Shown in pieces: positions 6,127-60,586 of a stretch of DNA of 64,000 bases. A model generated the notes under the pieces. That model saw nothing but the letters and a program-made list of their open reading frames with translations, ran no database searches and was not told the DNA's origin. The stretch comes from an uncultured Bacilli bacterium. GTDB lineage: Bacteria > Bacillota_I > Bacilli_A > RF39 > UBA660. Location of the stretch: NCBI GenBank assembly GCA_947628535.1, contig CANRAF010000001.1:268-64267 (forward strand). The letters run 5' to 3'. A program made the position numbers and the translations under genes. Positions within the stretch are counted from its first letter, which is position 1. Each line of letters opens with the position of its first letter.

Positions 6127-6935
6127 TATACATCTTCCTCCTCTTCAAATTCATCTTCGAATTCATCTTGTTTTGGTTTTAATTCATCAATTAGTAAAAT
6201 TCTAGCATCATCTATTGTTAGATTATAGAAAAGTTCTCCTTTAATTGCAATTGATACTCTTCCTGTTTCTTCGGAAACTACTATTGCTAGAGCATCTGTC
6301 TCTTCGGTTATCCCAAGAGCTGCACGATGTCTAGTACCTAACCTTTTATTTATTTTTAAACTGTTGCTTGTAGGAAATACTGCTCCCGCACAACTTATTT
6401 TGTCTCCTTGTATTATTACTCCTCCATCATGTAGTGGATTATTTGGGAAGAATATTGAAACTAGAAGTTCACTTGACATTTCAGCATATAAATTTGTTGC
6501 TTTATTAATATAATCAATTAAACTTACATCTCTTTCAATAACAATTAAAGCTCCTATTTTGGCCTTTCTCATATTATCAACTGCAGTTATAATTTCATAT
6601 ACTAACCTTTCTCTTTCATCAACTGTTAAAATTTTATGCCTTCCTAAAAGTTGTGTTTTTCCTATTTGCTCTAAAATACTTCTTATTTCCGGTTGGAATA
6701 TAATAATCAAAGCAAGTGGTCCCCATTGAATTACATATTCAAGTATAAGTCCAACTGTAACTAATCCTATTGCATCTGCAATTATTTTTATTATCCAAAT
6801 AATTAATATTCCTTTGAATAATAAGGAAAGTTTAACATTACTTTTAACATTCTTTAAAATTTGATAAACTATTACCCATACGATTGTTACATCTATGATT
6901 TTTCTAATTATATCTATAATTAAGTCCCAATTCAT
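6126..6935 (-). CDS. cdaA: diadenylate cyclase CdaA
   Basis: Three TMs, PLHDGGVII and LGTRHRAALG motifs; GGAGG RBS before MNWDL. Confidence 0.95.
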   Translation of the reverse strand: MNWDLIIDIIRKIIDVTIVWVIVYQILKNVKSNVKLSLLFKGILIIWIIKIIADAIGLVTVGLILEYVIQWGPLALIIIFQPEIRSILEQIGKTQLLGRHKILTVDERERLVYEIITAVDNMRKAKIGALIVIERDVSLIDYINKATNLYAEMSSELLVSIFFPNNPLHDGGVIIQGDKISCAGAVFPTSNSLKINKRLGTRHRAALGITEETDALAIVVSEETGRVSIAIKGELFYNLTIDDARILLIDELKPKQDEFEDEFEEEEDV

Positions 6936-12626: not shown

Positions 12627-12703
12627 TGGTGGAGAATAAGGGATTCGAACCCTTGGCCTCCTGCGTGCAAGGCAGGCGCTCTAGCCAGCTGAGCTAATTC
12701 CCC
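12627..12703 (-). tRNA. tRNA-Ala(UGC)
   Basis: GGGGAATTAGCTCAGCTGG...CTTGCAC...GGTTCGAATCC...CTCCACCA cloverleaf with encoded CCA; TTGACA-16-TATAAT promoter at 12735-12762. Confidence 0.97.
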
Positions 12704-55143: not shown

Positions 55144-55677
55144 TTATTCTTCTTCAATAATTCCGTAATCATTATGTTTTCTTTTATATATTACTGCAAC
55201 TTTATCAGTTTCAATGTTTTTAAACATGTAGAAATCATGATTTAATAATTCCATTTGAAGAATTGCTTCTTCCTCATCCATTGGTTTTAATTCTACTGTT
55301 TTTCTCTTAACTATTTGATTTTGGTTTTCTTCATCTGAATCTATATTTTCAATATTTAAAATGAAATCAAATTTTCCTTTTTGTTTTTTTCCTGAAATTC
55401 TTGTTTTATTTTTAACAATTTGTCTTTCTAATTTATCAATAGATGTATCAATAACAGCGTAAAAATCTACACCTTCTTCTTCTACTCTTAAAGTGCATCC
55501 TTTAAGAGGTATAGTTACTTCAATTTTTTGTTTTGGCCCATATACTTTGAATAGAATGGTACCTGTTACTTCATCACTGTTTTCTATGTACTTATTTAAC
55601 TTTTGAATTTTTTCTTCAGCATAATTTTTCATAGAATCAGTTATATTTGTTTTTTCACCACGAATATTTAATTTCAT
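55144..55677 (-). CDS. hpf: ribosome hibernation promoting factor (long HPF)
   Basis: S30AE fold, IDKLERQI, KPMDEEEAILQMELLNHDFY. Confidence 0.93.
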   Translation of the reverse strand: MKLNIRGEKTNITDSMKNYAEEKIQKLNKYIENSDEVTGTILFKVYGPKQKIEVTIPLKGCTLRVEEEGVDFYAVIDTSIDKLERQIVKNKTRISGKKQKGKFDFILNIENIDSDEENQNQIVKRKTVELKPMDEEEAILQMELLNHDFYMFKNIETDKVAVIYKRKHNDYGIIEEE

Positions 55678-55757
55678 AATATCATCTCCTTTATTTAAGT
55701 TTATCATATTTATAAAAAAAATAAAACCACAAAAGTGGTTTAATGAAGAATAAAAAG

Positions 55758-56006
55758 TTAAGAAATTAATTTTAAAAAAGCTTCTTTGTGAAAGTTGTTT
55801 AAACTTCTCACCGAATAGTATTTCTGTGCCCTCCCATATTTCGAAAAATCCATATTGTATGATATGTATGTTAAACTCTGTTTCTTCCAGTATATCCTTA
55901 CTATTATCTCTGTCTCATACCCATTCAATCCCTTTTCTCTACATTTCTCTATTAATTCCTCTTTGTTCGTCGGTAAATTCATCAATGTCTTTAATCTCTT
56001 TGGCAC
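55758..56006 (-). CDS. sigma-region-4/ArpU-like HTH protein, copy 1
   Basis: ETEIIVRIYWKKQSLTYIS...YSVRSLNNFHKEAFLKL; GTG start overlapping the upstream stop; the 3 inter-copy SNPs are all synonymous in this frame. Confidence 0.65.
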   Translation of the reverse strand: MPKRLKTLMNLPTNKEELIEKCREKGLNGYETEIIVRIYWKKQSLTYISYNMDFSKYGRAQKYYSVRSLNNFHKEAFLKLIS

Positions 56007-56443
56007 TTCTCTTCTCCCTTTACTACTATATAGTTCATGTATACCGCTAACATACTACCTAATATTATACATAATAACACACTTACATATATGCTCGGTA
56101 TTAAGGCTGTTATTATATAAAATATTGTCCATGTGAATGTCGTACATGCCACTGTCGAGTTTAAATGAAATGTCTCCCCTAAAAGTGTTCTCACAAAGAA
56201 AAATCCTATTAGAAAAAATGATAACTCTGCAAACGCATCATTAAAATATGCTATTACAAATACTCCCGCTGTTTGTATTAATTGAAGTGGTATTGTTATT
56301 CCATAAAATATTACATTTTCTATTATTCTCTCTAATTTTTCTGCTCTTGTTTGGGCAAAATTCTCTATCGATGCTGTATTATTAAACCAAATCCCGTTCT
56401 TTCTCTTTCTCTTCTCTTTTTCTTCGTTTCCTTTCTTATTCAT
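55991..56443 (-). CDS. AgrB-like membrane peptidase, copy 1
   Basis: VRTLLGETFHLNSTVAC retains R...G..H-x6-C (His-Cys spacing as in S. aureus AgrB H77/C84); about 4 TM; GGAGG RBS. Confidence 0.65.
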   Translation of the reverse strand: MNKKGNEEKEKRKRKNGIWFNNTASIENFAQTRAEKLERIIENVIFYGITIPLQLIQTAGVFVIAYFNDAFAELSFFLIGFFFVRTLLGETFHLNSTVACTTFTWTIFYIITALIPSIYVSVLLCIILGSMLAVYMNYIVVKGEEKCQRD

Positions 56444-56505
56444 TTATTCCTCCTATTTGTTTAATAATAGACAAGGGCCCTTTTATCTATTATTCTTTTT
56501 ATTTA

Positions 56506-56598
56506 TTATTTTGCTATGTTAACTACTTTTTTTGCTAGTTTCTTTGCAAATTTGTTTTCTTTGTCGAATTTGCCCCACCATAATAGGCTTTGTCCCAT
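56506..56598 (-). CDS. 30-aa peptide MGQSLLWWGKFDKENKFAKKLAKKVVNIAK, copy 1 (absent from the ORF track)
   Basis: AGAGGTG RBS, ATG at 56598, TAA-TAA; overlaps the 3' end of the membrane-protein gene in another frame. Confidence 0.65.
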   Translation of the reverse strand: MGQSLLWWGKFDKENKFAKKLAKKVVNIAK

Positions 56599-57190
56599 CT
56601 TTTACACCTCTTTTCTTTAAATATACTTCTTTTACTAATATAATTATTCCCATAATTATAAAGTAATCTATTGATAATAAATTCCTCGTTGTTTCATTTA
56701 TTTGTGTAAAATCTATAAATCTTACTTTATACATATATGTTATTCCTTCTATTACTACATTTAATCCTATACTTAAAAATATATATATGATACTTCTTAT
56801 TTTTCTTTTTGAATATATATAACCAAATACTATGAAGAAGATTATTACAAATAATTGTGCTATTCCTTTATCAAATATTCCTACTACTAATATATTTAGT
56901 AATAAATATACAATACTAAATTTAAATAATTTCTTGGCATCTTTTACTCTAAACACTATGAGCATAACTGCATAAAAATTTAATATGATAACTATCCAAT
57001 TTGTTATATAATCTATTGCTTTTATAACATTTATTTCCTTTAGATTTTCATATGTTACTGCATAATGTGGAAATCCCATACTTTCCATAGCTGTATTGAA
57101 TATTATTAACATAACCATTATTATCAGTAACCACACTACTACCTTTGCTATTTTCTCATTTACCCCTAACCATTTTATGAAATCCTTCAT
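56519..57190 (-). CDS. multi-pass membrane protein (about 6 TM, no kinase domain), copy 1
   Basis: GAGGT RBS before MKDFIKW; hydrophobic helices; TATAAT at 57215-57210. Confidence 0.75.
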   Translation of the reverse strand: MKDFIKWLGVNEKIAKVVVWLLIIMVMLIIFNTAMESMGFPHYAVTYENLKEINVIKAIDYITNWIVIILNFYAVMLIVFRVKDAKKLFKFSIVYLLLNILVVGIFDKGIAQLFVIIFFIVFGYIYSKRKIRSIIYIFLSIGLNVVIEGITYMYKVRFIDFTQINETTRNLLSIDYFIIMGIIILVKEVYLKKRGVKDGTKPIMVGQIRQRKQICKETSKKSS

Positions 57191-57351
57191 ATATACTACC
57201 TCACTTCCGATTATACTATATCTATCTTTCTTTGTAACGCAATTGTTACGCAAATGATGTGCTTTTCCATTTTTTTCCATTTACTATTTTATCATCTTTT
57301 TAATTTGTAATGGAACTTATTTGTTACTTTATTTATATTATAATGTTTTTA

Positions 57352-57380
57352 TTGAGTTTTTCATAGTTTTATGTTATAAT
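57352..57380 (+). promoter_or_regulatory. ssrA promoter
   Basis: TTGAGT-17-TATAAT with TG extension, 8 nt before the tmRNA 5' end. Confidence 0.75.
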
Positions 57381-57388
57381 TAGTCCAC

Positions 57389-57733
57389 GGGGACGATAGG
57401 GTTCGACAAGAGTATAATGATTTAAACTGCAAGTAGATGGCAATCTTTAAATGCATTTTTAAAAATAACTGGAAACAGACAATTACAATTCGCTTAATTT
57501 AATTAACTAGAGCGAGCTCTTGTATATTCTCTGCTTACTGGAATATATTAGGGTAATACTAAGTAGGCTATATTACTATAGTTCCTATATATAGTAATGA
57601 ATTTTTATAGGATAGTTGTCTATGTGGTTGTTAATTGCTTTGTGGATAATGAATTTTTTCAATTAACTAAACTTGTAGATGTTTAAATTTAATTTGCTTT
57701 TGGACAGGAGTTCAATTCTCCTCGTCTCCACCA
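57389..57733 (+). ncRNA. ssrA: tmRNA
   Basis: 5' GGGGACG...TTCGAC pairs with 3' CGTCTCCACCA (G3:U), T-loop TTCAATT, ATAACT resume context followed by tag ORF GNRQLQFA-stop (57471-57497). Confidence 0.95.
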
Positions 57734-57757
57734 TTAAGTAATAATTTTTTTATAAAT

Positions 57758-57831
57758 GCCGATTTAGTTTAGTGGTAAAACAGATGCATGGTAAGCATCA
57801 GAGATCAGTTCAATTCTGTTAATCGGCACCA
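57758..57831 (+). tRNA. tRNA-Thr(GGU)
   Basis: GCCGATT/AATCGGC acceptor stem, GATGC-ATGGTAA-GCATC anticodon arm, ACCA end; one T-stem mismatch. Confidence 0.85.
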
Positions 57832-57895
57832 GAGTGTTTTTTGTAAAAACATTTTTATGATATATTAAATATGTTTCAAAATTTTGTATAAAGTA

Positions 57896-57929
57896 AAAAC
57901 TTAGCAAAAATATTAATTTGCTAAGTTTT
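57896..57929. terminator. hairpin between ssrA-tRNA and cassette copy 2
   Basis: AAAACTTAGCAAA...TTTGCTAAGTTTT. Confidence 0.75.
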
Positions 57930-57957
57930 ATTTTTATTATATCTGAAGAATAAAAAG

Positions 57958-58206
57958 TTAAGAAATTAATTTTAAAAAAGCTTCTTTGTGAAAGTTGTTT
58001 AAACTTCTCACTGAATAGTATTTCTGTGCCCTCCCATATTTCGAAAAATCCATATTATATGATATGTATGTTAAACTCTGTTTCTTCCAGTATATCCTTA
58101 CTATTATCTCTGTCTCATACCCATTCAATCCTTTTTCTCTACATTTCTCTATTAATTCCTCTTTGTTCGTCGGTAAATTCATCAATGTCTTTAATCTCTT
58201 TGGCAC
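57958..58206 (-). CDS. sigma-region-4/ArpU-like HTH protein, copy 2
   Basis: Protein identical to copy 1. Confidence 0.65.
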   Translation of the reverse strand: MPKRLKTLMNLPTNKEELIEKCREKGLNGYETEIIVRIYWKKQSLTYISYNMDFSKYGRAQKYYSVRSLNNFHKEAFLKLIS

Positions 58207-58643
58207 TTCTCTTCTCCCTTTACTACTATATAGTTCATGTATACCGCTAACATACTACCTAATATTATACATAATAACACACTTACATATATGCTCGGTA
58301 TTAAGGCTGTTATTATATAAAATATTGTCCATGTGAATGTCGTACATGCCACTGTCGAGTTTAAATGAAATGTCTCCCCTAAAAGTGTTCTCACAAAGAA
58401 AAATCCTATTAGAAAAAATGATAACTCTGCAAACGCATCATTAAAATATGCTATTACAAATACTCCCGCTGTTTGTATTAATTGAAGTGGTATTGTTATT
58501 CCATAAAATATTACATTTTCTATTATTCTCTCTAATTTTTCTGCTCTTGTTTGGGCAAAATTCTCTATCGATGCTGTATTATTAAACCAAATCCCGTTCT
58601 TTCTCTTTCTCTTCTCTTTTTCTTCGTTTCCTTTCTTATTCAT
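58191..58643 (-). CDS. AgrB-like membrane peptidase, copy 2
   Basis: Identical to copy 1. Confidence 0.65.
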   Translation of the reverse strand: MNKKGNEEKEKRKRKNGIWFNNTASIENFAQTRAEKLERIIENVIFYGITIPLQLIQTAGVFVIAYFNDAFAELSFFLIGFFFVRTLLGETFHLNSTVACTTFTWTIFYIITALIPSIYVSVLLCIILGSMLAVYMNYIVVKGEEKCQRD

Positions 58644-58705
58644 TTATTCCTCCTATTTGTTTAATAATAGACAAGGGCCCTTTTATCTATTATTCTTTTT
58701 ATTTA

Positions 58706-58798
58706 TTATTTTGCTATGTTAACTACTTTTTTTGCTAGTTTCTTTGCAAATTTGTTTTCTTTGTCGAATTTGCCCCACCATAATAGGCTTTGTCCCAT
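58706..58798 (-). CDS. 30-aa peptide, copy 2
   Basis: Identical to copy 1. Confidence 0.65.
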   Translation of the reverse strand: MGQSLLWWGKFDKENKFAKKLAKKVVNIAK

Positions 58799-59390
58799 CT
58801 TTTACACCTCTTTTCTTTAAATATACTTCTTTTACTAATATAATTATTCCCATAATTATAAAGTAATCTATTGATAATAAATTCCTCGTTGTTTCATTTA
58901 TTTGTGTAAAATCTATAAATCTTACTTTATACATATATGTTATTCCTTCTATTACTACATTTAATCCTATACTTAAAAATATATATATGATACTTCTTAT
59001 TTTTCTTTTTGAATATATATAACCAAATACTATGAAGAAGATTATTACAAATAATTGTGCTATTCCTTTATCAAATATTCCTACTACTAATATATTTAGT
59101 AATAAATATACAATACTAAATTTAAATAATTTCTTGGCATCTTTTACTCTAAACACTATGAGCATAACTGCATAAAAATTTAATATGATAACTATCCAAT
59201 TTGTTATATAATCTATTGCTTTTATAACATTTATTTCCTTTAGATTTTCATATGTTACTGCATAATGTGGAAATCCCATACTTTCCATAGCTGTATTGAA
59301 TATTATTAACATAACCATTATTATCAGTAACCACACTACTACCTTTGCTATTTTCTCATTTACCCCTAACCATTTTATGAAATCCTTCAT
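58719..59390 (-). CDS. multi-pass membrane protein, copy 2
   Basis: Identical to copy 1. Confidence 0.75.
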   Translation of the reverse strand: MKDFIKWLGVNEKIAKVVVWLLIIMVMLIIFNTAMESMGFPHYAVTYENLKEINVIKAIDYITNWIVIILNFYAVMLIVFRVKDAKKLFKFSIVYLLLNILVVGIFDKGIAQLFVIIFFIVFGYIYSKRKIRSIIYIFLSIGLNVVIEGITYMYKVRFIDFTQINETTRNLLSIDYFIIMGIIILVKEVYLKKRGVKDGTKPIMVGQIRQRKQICKETSKKSS

Positions 59391-59542
59391 ATATACTACC
59401 TCACTTCCGATTATACTATATCTATCTTTCTTTGTAACGCAATTGTTACGCAAATGATGTGCTTTTCCATTTTTTTCCATTTACTATTTTATCATCTTTT
59501 TTAGCCCTTTTTATTTTTTTTAACATAAAAAAAAGAATTTTG

Positions 59543-60586
59543 TCAATTCTTTCCTTTTTTATCAGCAATAATACTCGTTTTTGTAATTATAAATCCTATT
59601 AATAAAAGTATAAATATATATATTATTATTCCTAGTGTTTTATCATTTATTGAATAAATTACAGAAGCAAATGCAAATAATATATTCATTGCATAAATTG
59701 CAAGTACTGTATTTCTATGTGATAGCCCTAAATTTAAAAGTTGATGATGCAGATGAGCTTTATCAGGCATATATATTGGTTGTTTTTTTATCATTCTTCT
59801 AATAATTGCAAATAATGTATCTAAAATTGGTATTCCTAATAATAATATTGGAATAAAGAATGATGTCATTGTTACTGTTTTAAATCCTAATAGTGATATA
59901 GTTGCTATCATAAAACCTTGAAACATTGAACCAGAATCTCCTGAAAATATTTTTGCTGGATAAAAGTTATGACATAGGAATCCAAGTGATGCTCCGAGCA
60001 TAATGAATGCAAGAGATACATCTAATCCTCCGAAACTTGCTTTTATAAAAGCAATTATTCCTATTGTGGAATAAAAAATGCTACATGTTCCTGTTGATAG
60101 TCCATCCAGTCCATCTATTAAATTTATTATATTTATACATCCAACTATAAATAATATAGTAAGTGGGTAAGTAAAAATACCAAAATCTATATGGAAACTG
60201 CCTATAGTTATTTTATCAAGTGCTATACCACCATAGAATAGAACAATTGCTGCAGCAATTATTTGTCCTAAAAGTTTTGTTTTAGCTCCTAGTGGACTAA
60301 TATCATCTATTACTCCGACTATTATAATTATAAATGCTCCAATTAATATTGAATTCATTTGAATGCTTTGTACCCCAAATAGCATATAGCCAAAAAGAAA
60401 TGTTAGAAAAACTCCGAGTCCTCCTAGTCTAGGCATTGGCTTAGTGTGAACTTTTCTTTTATCTGGCATATCAATAGCTCCAATATGTTTTGCTACTTTC
60501 TTTATATAAAATGTCACTAAAAATGAAAAGATAAAACAAGTTGCAATTATTATAAAGATATGCAAATGATTACTTAAATCTAACAT
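59543..60586 (-). CDS. tagO: TagO/WecA-family UDP-GlcNAc:undecaprenyl-P GlcNAc-1-P transferase
   Basis: GVIDD, INLIDGLDGL, IFSGDSGS, DKAHLHH. Confidence 0.88.
   Translation of the reverse strand: MLDLSNHLHIFIIIATCFIFSFLVTFYIKKVAKHIGAIDMPDKRKVHTKPMPRLGGLGVFLTFLFGYMLFGVQSIQMNSILIGAFIIIIVGVIDDISPLGAKTKLLGQIIAAAIVLFYGGIALDKITIGSFHIDFGIFTYPLTILFIVGCINIINLIDGLDGLSTGTCSIFYSTIGIIAFIKASFGGLDVSLAFIMLGASLGFLCHNFYPAKIFSGDSGSMFQGFMIATISLLGFKTVTMTSFFIPILLLGIPILDTLFAIIRRMIKKQPIYMPDKAHLHHQLLNLGLSHRNTVLAIYAMNILFAFASVIYSINDKTLGIIIYIFILLLIGFIITKTSIIADKKGKN

Follow-up and report, generated by a model that had tools for sequence, protein, structure and literature searches.

Here we report that, in an uncultured bacterium of the Bacilli, the genes for transfer-messenger RNA (tmRNA; ssrA) and a threonine tRNA lie between two nearly identical direct copies of a three-gene operon encoding a polytopic membrane protein (p253), an AgrB-like membrane protein and a conserved helical protein of 82 amino acids (p82). 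We interpret this arrangement, with a probability of about 0.7, as a real intragenomic duplication of a resident operon and as an unresolved intermediate of a gene-order change by duplication and loss. The stretch analysed, hereafter called the window, comprises 64,000 nucleotides of contig CANRAF010000001.1 (positions 268 to 64,267; assembly GCA_947628535.1); it is AT-rich (28% GC) and comes from the short-read assembly of a rabbit-gut metagenome.

Self-comparison of the window delimited two repeat copies on the minus strand, R1 at 55744-57301, on the side of the ribosome hibernation factor gene hpf, and R2 at 57944-59501, on the side of a glycosyltransferase gene (GT4, MraY/WecA type), each with a promoter/leader and the three genes. 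The copies are 1558 bp long, offset by 2200 bp and 99.8% identical, with three mismatches (55812/58012, 55857/58057 and 55932/58132), and the identity breaks off sharply at both edges; a third copy was not found within the 64-kb window. The unique core between them, 642 bp long (57302-57943), carries on the plus strand a TG-extended promoter-like site, TTGAGT-17-TATAAT (57352-57380, a consensus match only), ssrA (57389-57733; ARAGORN, and full length in Rfam RF00023 with 136.9 bits over model positions 1-374), whose tag GNRQLQFA* is also that of the relatives described below, and tRNA-Thr(GGU) (57758-57831; anticodon GGT in DNA; ARAGORN and Rfam). A bidirectional terminator hairpin (57896-57929), placed by sequence between tRNA-Thr and the end of the R2 operon, lies outside the repeat, as does a minus-strand terminator hairpin after the R1 operon (55724-55741), which is followed by the hpf promoter region and kept upstream of hpf in relatives. 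The unique flanks hold, on the minus strand and identified by Pfam, hpf on the left (flank A, 55144-55707) and the glycosyltransferase gene on the right (flank B, 59543-60586), giving the layout GT4 - R2 - [tRNA-Thr, tmRNA on the opposite strand] - R1 - hpf. One tmRNA gene and one tRNA-Thr gene were found, and a blastn search of the core against the window returned only the core itself and its own terminator hairpin.

An earlier sequence-only reading had described this layout, with the 1558-bp repeat around a 642-bp core that contains the ssrA promoter, both RNA genes and a terminator, and had remarked on the neat repeat ends; both descriptions hold on the sequence. The left end of the repeat lies 14 bp beyond the stop of the p82 gene (which ends at 55758), and the right end precedes a conserved extended -10 box, TGATAAAAT (57294-57286), by 5-7 bp. 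The -10 box is thus within the repeat while the terminators sit in the unique flanks; the repeat is a complete transcription unit minus its terminator, which accounts for the neat ends. They are the limits of a transcription unit, not the termini of an element.

The operon itself is not peculiar to the window. Searches with the 253-aa and 82-aa proteins, with retrieval of the encoding contigs, yielded about 60 loci from related uncultured Bacilli, in which the operon occurs once, always at the same position in the synteny murA-L31-rpiB-(DUF1146)-M23-mreB-GT4-[operon]-hpf-...-uvrB-DUF1287-HD, and the operon gene trees follow the tree of the flanking genes. Within and beside the repeat, Pfam detected only AgrB, HPF, GT4, UvrB, DUF1287 and HD, and NCBIfam nothing relevant, with no integrase, transposase or relaxase; the blastn search of the core against the window revealed no att site and no duplication of the ssrA or tRNA 3' end, and inspection by eye of the repeat ends found no convincing terminal inverted repeat or target-site duplication. 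The sequence-only reading was therefore right that no integrase, transposase or att duplication is visible, and the comparison of relatives that it had proposed as a check could be made at about 60 loci; its suggestion of a mobilised cassette was not supported by that comparison, since the operon is single-copy, vertically inherited and at the same locus throughout, has its own conserved promoter, and adjoins an ssrA gene whose 3' end is unduplicated. On comparative grounds, the repeat is best described as a vertically inherited core operon and not as foreign DNA.

Five gene orders were distinguished among the window and the other loci (here L denotes contigs and loci, including those of relatives), each read from GT4 to hpf. 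The operon precedes the RNA genes in order a, operon - [tRNA-Thr, tmRNA] - hpf (L012-14), and follows them in order b, [tRNA-Thr, tmRNA] - operon - hpf (L007-9, L020-22, L024, L025, L028, L061). Order c, operon - hpf with no tmRNA nearby, is that of all outgroups, on long contigs, and of L016 and L056, on short ones. Two operon copies around the RNA genes, order d, are found in the window and in L002, and in order e the operon is split, as agrB-p82 - [RNAs] - p253 - hpf (L026, the 149-kb contig L027, and L029). In a tree of hpf, GT4, mreB and uvrB, with support by the Shimodaira-Hasegawa-like approximate likelihood ratio test (SH-aLRT), all ssrA-adjacent orders fall into one clade (98) that contains monophyletic groups for b (100) and e (99); a basal polytomy comprises the window (d), L012 (a) and L016, and every outgroup has order c. 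A tree of agrB and p82 agrees with it.

The split order bears the scar of a lost copy. In two of its species, a p253 remnant of 57-58 N-terminal amino acids lies with the operon promoter/leader between GT4 and agrB (tblastn E ~1e-15; at 4378-4551 in L027, and in L029), while a full-length p253 gene with its own promoter copy follows tmRNA on the hpf side. The coexistence of a remnant and a full copy means that a two-copy ancestor existed in the split lineage, and because the remnants group together and the full copies group together in the p253 tree, the duplication predates the split of those two species. Order e is the outcome predicted by complementary loss from order d; the window combines orders a and b, and has the form that e requires as its precursor. 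In p253 trees examined for dating, with GT4-side and hpf-side paralogue clades as the contrast, no resolved paralogue clades were obtained.

The two-copy state has support from short-read contigs. Low-depth short-read runs (here denoted X) were examined as Logan contigs (k=31), and all four junctions, hpf|R, R|core, core|R and R|GT4, are present among the contigs of the four runs of the source sample. The hpf|R junction (A|R1) was found in X1, X2, X5, X9, X12, L006 and L015, core|R2 in X1, X2, X3 and X12, and R|GT4 (R2|B) in X1, X4, X11, L003 and L005. These contigs end 30 bp into the repeat, as expected of a true repeat at this k. The repeat-only contigs have a depth of ~4.6-5.8, the flanks of ~2.2-5.1 (mean ~3.4) and the core of ~3.3-5.4, so that the read-depth check named in the sequence-only reading gives a repeat at ~1.6-1.8 times the flanks and about one core per two repeats, on contig means that are noisy. 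An independent metaSPAdes contig of 5012 bp (L002) contains the whole R-core-R structure; other contigs stop at the repeat ends.

The junctions recur beyond a single strain, in several strains and samples. In X12, which comes from a different sample of the same study and represents a strain ~2-3% diverged, hpf|R and core|R contigs are both present and share an A>T change at repeat position 4, where the window has A in both copies. In runs of other studies, hpf|R and R|core were found in X5, X9 and L015, and R|GT4 in X11. At the variable site closest to the junction, all linking contigs (window, L006, X4, L003) have C where they lead to hpf and T where they lead to the core. Two loose ends were also observed. 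Contigs of X1, X2 and X4 leave the hpf flank at 55726 into ATATTAAAACATTTTTATTTGAAGAAGCTT, which has no match in the window or in the fetched loci and probably stems from another related population, in which the p82 gene ends differently. In X9, a related strain from another study, a contig exits the right end of the repeat at 59503 into TCACTTATTTGTGGTGTGGTTGTATCTTTT, neither core nor GT4 flank, and may reflect a further arrangement.

The small divergence between the copies has its own pattern. All three differences are synonymous third-position transitions in the p82 gene (chance ~0.04), and they are confined to the 189 bp next to one repeat end (chance ~0.004), a pattern that gene conversion between copies of genes under selection would be expected to leave. 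The copies differ by 0.2% within the window, against 2-3% between strains that share the junctions; the full copies of the other strains cannot be separated. Gene conversion would homogenise the copies for as long as the two-copy state lasts, and would explain their identity save for three synonymous sites at one edge. From this distribution of differences, we consider that the copies have probably been homogenised in this way.

Such a state would be hard to leave. Were the 1.56-kb direct repeats to recombine by a RecA-type route, one operon copy would be lost along with ssrA and tRNA-Thr; if these RNA genes are single-copy and needed, loss by recombination would be counter-selected and the two-copy state would persist. 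The tmRNA is essential in some bacteria, for example Helicobacter pylori (PMC2584231). The only exit would be through deletions inside one copy, which, according to the part lost, would leave the operon on one side of ssrA, on the other, or split around it. The argument of the sequence-only reading that the duplication is locked in if the RNAs are needed stands up, and a related lineage has indeed resolved its duplicate by complementary partial deletions, not by pop-out. We advance more tentatively, as somewhat less than an even chance, the wider proposal that indispensable ssrA and tRNA-Thr genes between direct repeats act as a lock, under which the duplication is stable over evolutionary time, its copies evolve in concert and it is resolved only by internal deletions, having moved the operon across ssrA in one clade and split it in another.

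The second copy could have originated by a tandem duplication of 2.2 kb from which one core was then lost, by template switching during replication next to head-on, highly transcribed RNA genes, or by Campbell-type integration of a circle. Both the GC skew and the AT skew are negative across the window and nearly all long open reading frames (ORFs) are on the minus strand, with tmRNA and tRNA-Thr among the few plus-strand genes; the negative GC skew and the minus-strand genes imply that ssrA and tRNA-Thr are probably head-on to replication, in the window and in all relatives. A tRNA-Ala gene at 12627-12703 is co-directional with replication. Head-on conflict between transcription and replication is a plausible source of local instability (review, PMC7451550), and its role at the window locus is speculation on our part. 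As to age, one old duplication at the base of the clade with long-term conversion would need fewer events than recurrence in several lineages, while the lack in the window of a small ORF found before hpf in L016, L056, L027 and L029 hints at an independent, later duplication from an ancestor of type a.

Several points weigh against an intragenomic duplication as the source of the structure. R-core-R amounts to 1.71 units of the 2200-bp period, with unique flanks, so that no single tandem duplication could yield it and it calls for an unusual mechanism or for two or more events. The data are low-depth short-read contigs, the 1558-bp repeat is spanned neither by a read nor by a read pair, and the depth figures are noisy contig means at 3-6x. 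The three variable sites occur in five haplotypes across contigs (CGC, TAT, TAC, TGC and CAT), with only the junction-nearest site consistently linked to a flank; this shuffling of alleles could partly be strain polymorphism, and the support for concerted evolution amounts to one shared substitution (repeat position 4). A chromosome A-R-B accompanied by one 2.2-kb circle (R-core) per cell would fit the assembly graph just as well, and the short-read junctions look the same in either case. We also considered R1 as a precise insertion into a tmRNA-hpf spacer of the L012 type; joining the flanks gives an equal spacer length, but the distal similarity is not significant (p ~0.07), and the insertion is no more than a hint.

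An assembly artefact would have one operon copy in each genome, with R-core-R arising as an assembler loop or from the merging of two strains that carry the operon before and after ssrA. It would suit a short-read metagenome in which the 1558-bp repeat is longer than the reads and the probable insert, and it gains from the identity of the two copies in L002, as if one graph edge had been walked twice, from the occurrence of both single-copy orders in related species, and from the unexplained continuation at 55726 as a sign of a second related population in the sample. A mixture of strains, however, should yield equal depth (1:1) together with the junctions hpf|core and core|GT4; neither junction is among the loose ends shown, and the repeat has the raised depth given above. 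The loose end at 55726 matches neither the core nor anything else. Since the core runs into the repeat at each of its ends, every linear single-copy solution fails. Two left contexts of the repeat recur in the diverged strain of another sample (X12), and the split-operon relatives are proof that a two-copy state arises in this clade. We consider an artefact unlikely.

A mobile origin would take one of two forms, a non-autonomous unit that an unseen recombinase mobilised in trans, or else a 2.2-kb circle of operon, ssrA and tRNA-Thr entering a chromosome with the operon alone. The latter, Campbell-type route would bring ssrA to the locus and create the flanking repeats in one step; it predicts exactly what is seen at both outer junctions (GT4|operon and operon|hpf), which are deep-ancestral, as in the ssrA-less outgroups, and a single integration with differing losses needs fewer events than repeated duplications. 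The sharp repeat ends coincide with a complete transcription unit, and ssrA and tRNA genes are classic integration sites of islands (PMC3146451). Against this stand the absence of integrase, transposase and relaxase genes in and next to the repeat, the unduplicated 3' ends of ssrA and the tRNA gene, the lack of convincing terminal inverted repeats or target-site duplications and the confinement of the operon to its conserved place in the ~60 loci; moreover, a circle free of replication genes would have no known source, and there is no sign of where ssrA lay earlier. A mobile or circular origin thus also appears unlikely to us, and duplication of the resident operon within the genome remains our preferred explanation.

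Other candidates were rejected. Transfer from a strain with the operon before ssrA by homologous recombination does not fit, as those lineages have ~76-80% DNA identity against the 99.8% between the copies; a retro-copy of the mRNA fails because the repeat includes the -10 box and is without the terminator. In L012, a TGATAAAGT box resembling the operon -10 (p 0.00-0.04 in 6/18 comparisons) was considered as the scar of a lost copy, but is too generic in AT-rich DNA to count.

The p253 ORF lies on the minus strand at 56519-57190 in copy 1 and 58719-59390 in copy 2, with the open frame running on to 57280 and 59480, respectively. All homologues begin at MKDFIKW (57190/59390 in the window), a start that is preceded by stop codons in relatives; the protein is therefore probably 223 aa long, and the 253-aa ORF was likely called 30 codons too long. 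It has no match in Pfam, and in NCBIfam a weak match to TIGR04370 (E=0.004) under the cut-off. The AgrB-like protein of 150 aa (minus strand, 55991-56443 and 58191-58643) matches PF04647 over profile positions 17-120 of 185 (E=3.6e-7, 30.2 bits, cut-off 23). The gene for p82 (minus strand, 55758-56006 and 57958-58206; ORF and conservation) overlaps the end of the AgrB-like gene. Its product, up to 91% identical between species, has no match in Pfam, NCBIfam or the PDB sequences; the AlphaFold model, with a predicted local distance difference test score (pLDDT) of 89, is a small helical bundle whose fold resembles those of sigma region 4 and of KorA helix-turn-helix repressors only weakly (E>0.2), and p82 is thus probably a helix-turn-helix protein resembling sigma region 4, as far as the model indicates.

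The 111-bp leader (minus strand, 57191-57301 in R1 and, as the repeat copy, 59391-59501 in R2), recognised by a GTTACA-17-TATAAT match and by conservation, comprises the extended -10 TGATAAAAT, a direct repeat TTGCGT-N5-TTGCG(C), the element TATAGTATAAT and a strong ribosome-binding site (RBS), GAGGTAGTA. These elements are conserved in more than 15 relatives and in both genomic contexts (L007, L010, L012, L016, L018, L020-L029, L061). In relatives such as L016, L012 and L024, the leader also has a short hairpin of the GGTAAAAATTACC type, which is degenerate in the window. The leader looks like an operator or a regulated promoter, and is possibly the target of the helix-turn-helix-like p82. 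Between the p253 and AgrB-like genes, a conserved hairpin with a GGGCCC centre and a T-run is found at 56463-56494 and 58663-58694, and at ~6625-6655 in L027; it is likely an internal terminator or attenuator that would part the operon into two expression units. The split-operon lineage is broken at this same boundary.

Just before the hpf hairpin, relatives have a small ORF of 26-33 aa with its own RBS and a conserved C-terminus, ...(K/R)R(I/G)VET(Y/F) (L016 ~1596-1676; L056 ~1572-1667; L027 6680-6778; L029 ~6755-6856). It follows p82 in single-copy loci and p253 in split loci, is not present in the window, and could encode a peptide substrate of the AgrB-like protein. The repeat shares with the canonical agr locus (agrBDCA) an AgrB-family protein, here shorter at 150 aa than a typical AgrB, but the AgrD, the histidine kinase AgrC and the LytTR regulator AgrA of that locus are found neither in or beside the repeat nor elsewhere in the window; the operon is not a canonical agr locus. 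In a distant relative (L001, 2128-4334), two tandem LytTR-type genes, one of them broken by Ns, and two tandem cspA-like genes lie between the operon and hpf, which would make local tandem duplication common at the operon-hpf locus and indicates that LytTR regulators can accompany the AgrB-like operon.

Two insertions were seen at loci of order b. In L028 (1701-3317), 1.6 kb between tRNA-Thr and tmRNA has genes for two proteins, one of 417 aa with a lytic-transglycosylase-like motif and one of 81 aa, and none for an integrase. In the L007-9 lineage, a gene for a 460-aa FAD-dependent oxidoreductase (L007, 5972-7354) is inserted on the opposite strand between GT4 and tRNA-Thr.

The structure invites comparison with the islands that occupy ssrA and tRNA genes, such as the vcr islands at ssrA in Dehalococcoides (PMC3146451), which share with it direct repeats adjoining ssrA and a tRNA gene; those islands have an integrase, use a duplicated ssrA 3' end as att, and are foreign and variably present. 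The window has instead 1.56-kb copies of a resident core operon, an unduplicated ssrA and no recombinase, and is not an ssrA-integrated island. The tufA/tufB genes and rrn operons, known for concerted evolution by gene conversion (PMC5485169, PMC6053082), offer a likeness in near-identical paralogs that differ at one edge only, and in a two-copy state common to strains more diverged than the copies are. The tuf and rrn copies lie far apart and are often inverted, whereas here they are direct repeats 642 bp apart, which are normally soon lost.

In Salmonella and Escherichia coli, RecA-dependent tandem duplications and amplifications are unstable, and kilobase direct repeats lead to loss or amplification by unequal recombination. 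The repeats in the window are likewise of kilobase size; because recombinational loss here would remove ssrA and tRNA-Thr, the duplication should be stable, unlike those cases. A close parallel is the tandem duplication random loss model of animal mitochondria (for example PMC3283314), where a block is duplicated, copies are lost differentially, alternative orders arise around RNA genes and pseudogene remnants mark the lost copies, as the cut-down p253 does in L027 and L029. The window and its relatives present two copies against one (in short-read contigs), alternative orders and degraded remnants. The present case differs in that a protein-coding operon hops across an RNA-gene module in a bacterial chromosome, that the intermediate has 1.7 units rather than 2 and is not a plain tandem duplication, and that needed genes caught between the copies probably force the two-copy state to persist. 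A literature search joining the term tandem duplication random loss with bacteria and gene order returned only work on mitochondrial gene order or mitochondrial tRNAs.

Duplications in bacteria are usually regarded as transient, and changes of local gene order are usually ascribed to inversions, mobile elements or transfer. The loci described here form a natural series in uncultured gut Bacilli, with a single operon copy on either side of ssrA, two copies flanking it, and a split operon with a pseudogene scar, and the series shows gene-order change through duplication and differential loss. Tandem-looking repeats around ssrA in metagenome-assembled genomes need not, then, be islands or misassemblies. 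While it lasts, the two-copy state gives a double dose of the AgrB-like operon, which is unstudied and which the whole group has conserved. The suggested rule is that a duplication enclosing a needed single-copy gene is not losable by recombination and so persists long enough for remodelling. If the lock operates as proposed, it would be a bacterial, selection-enforced version of the duplication and random loss known from mitochondria, maybe seeded by stalling of replication at head-on, heavily transcribed RNA genes and maybe general for changes of gene order around essential RNA genes.

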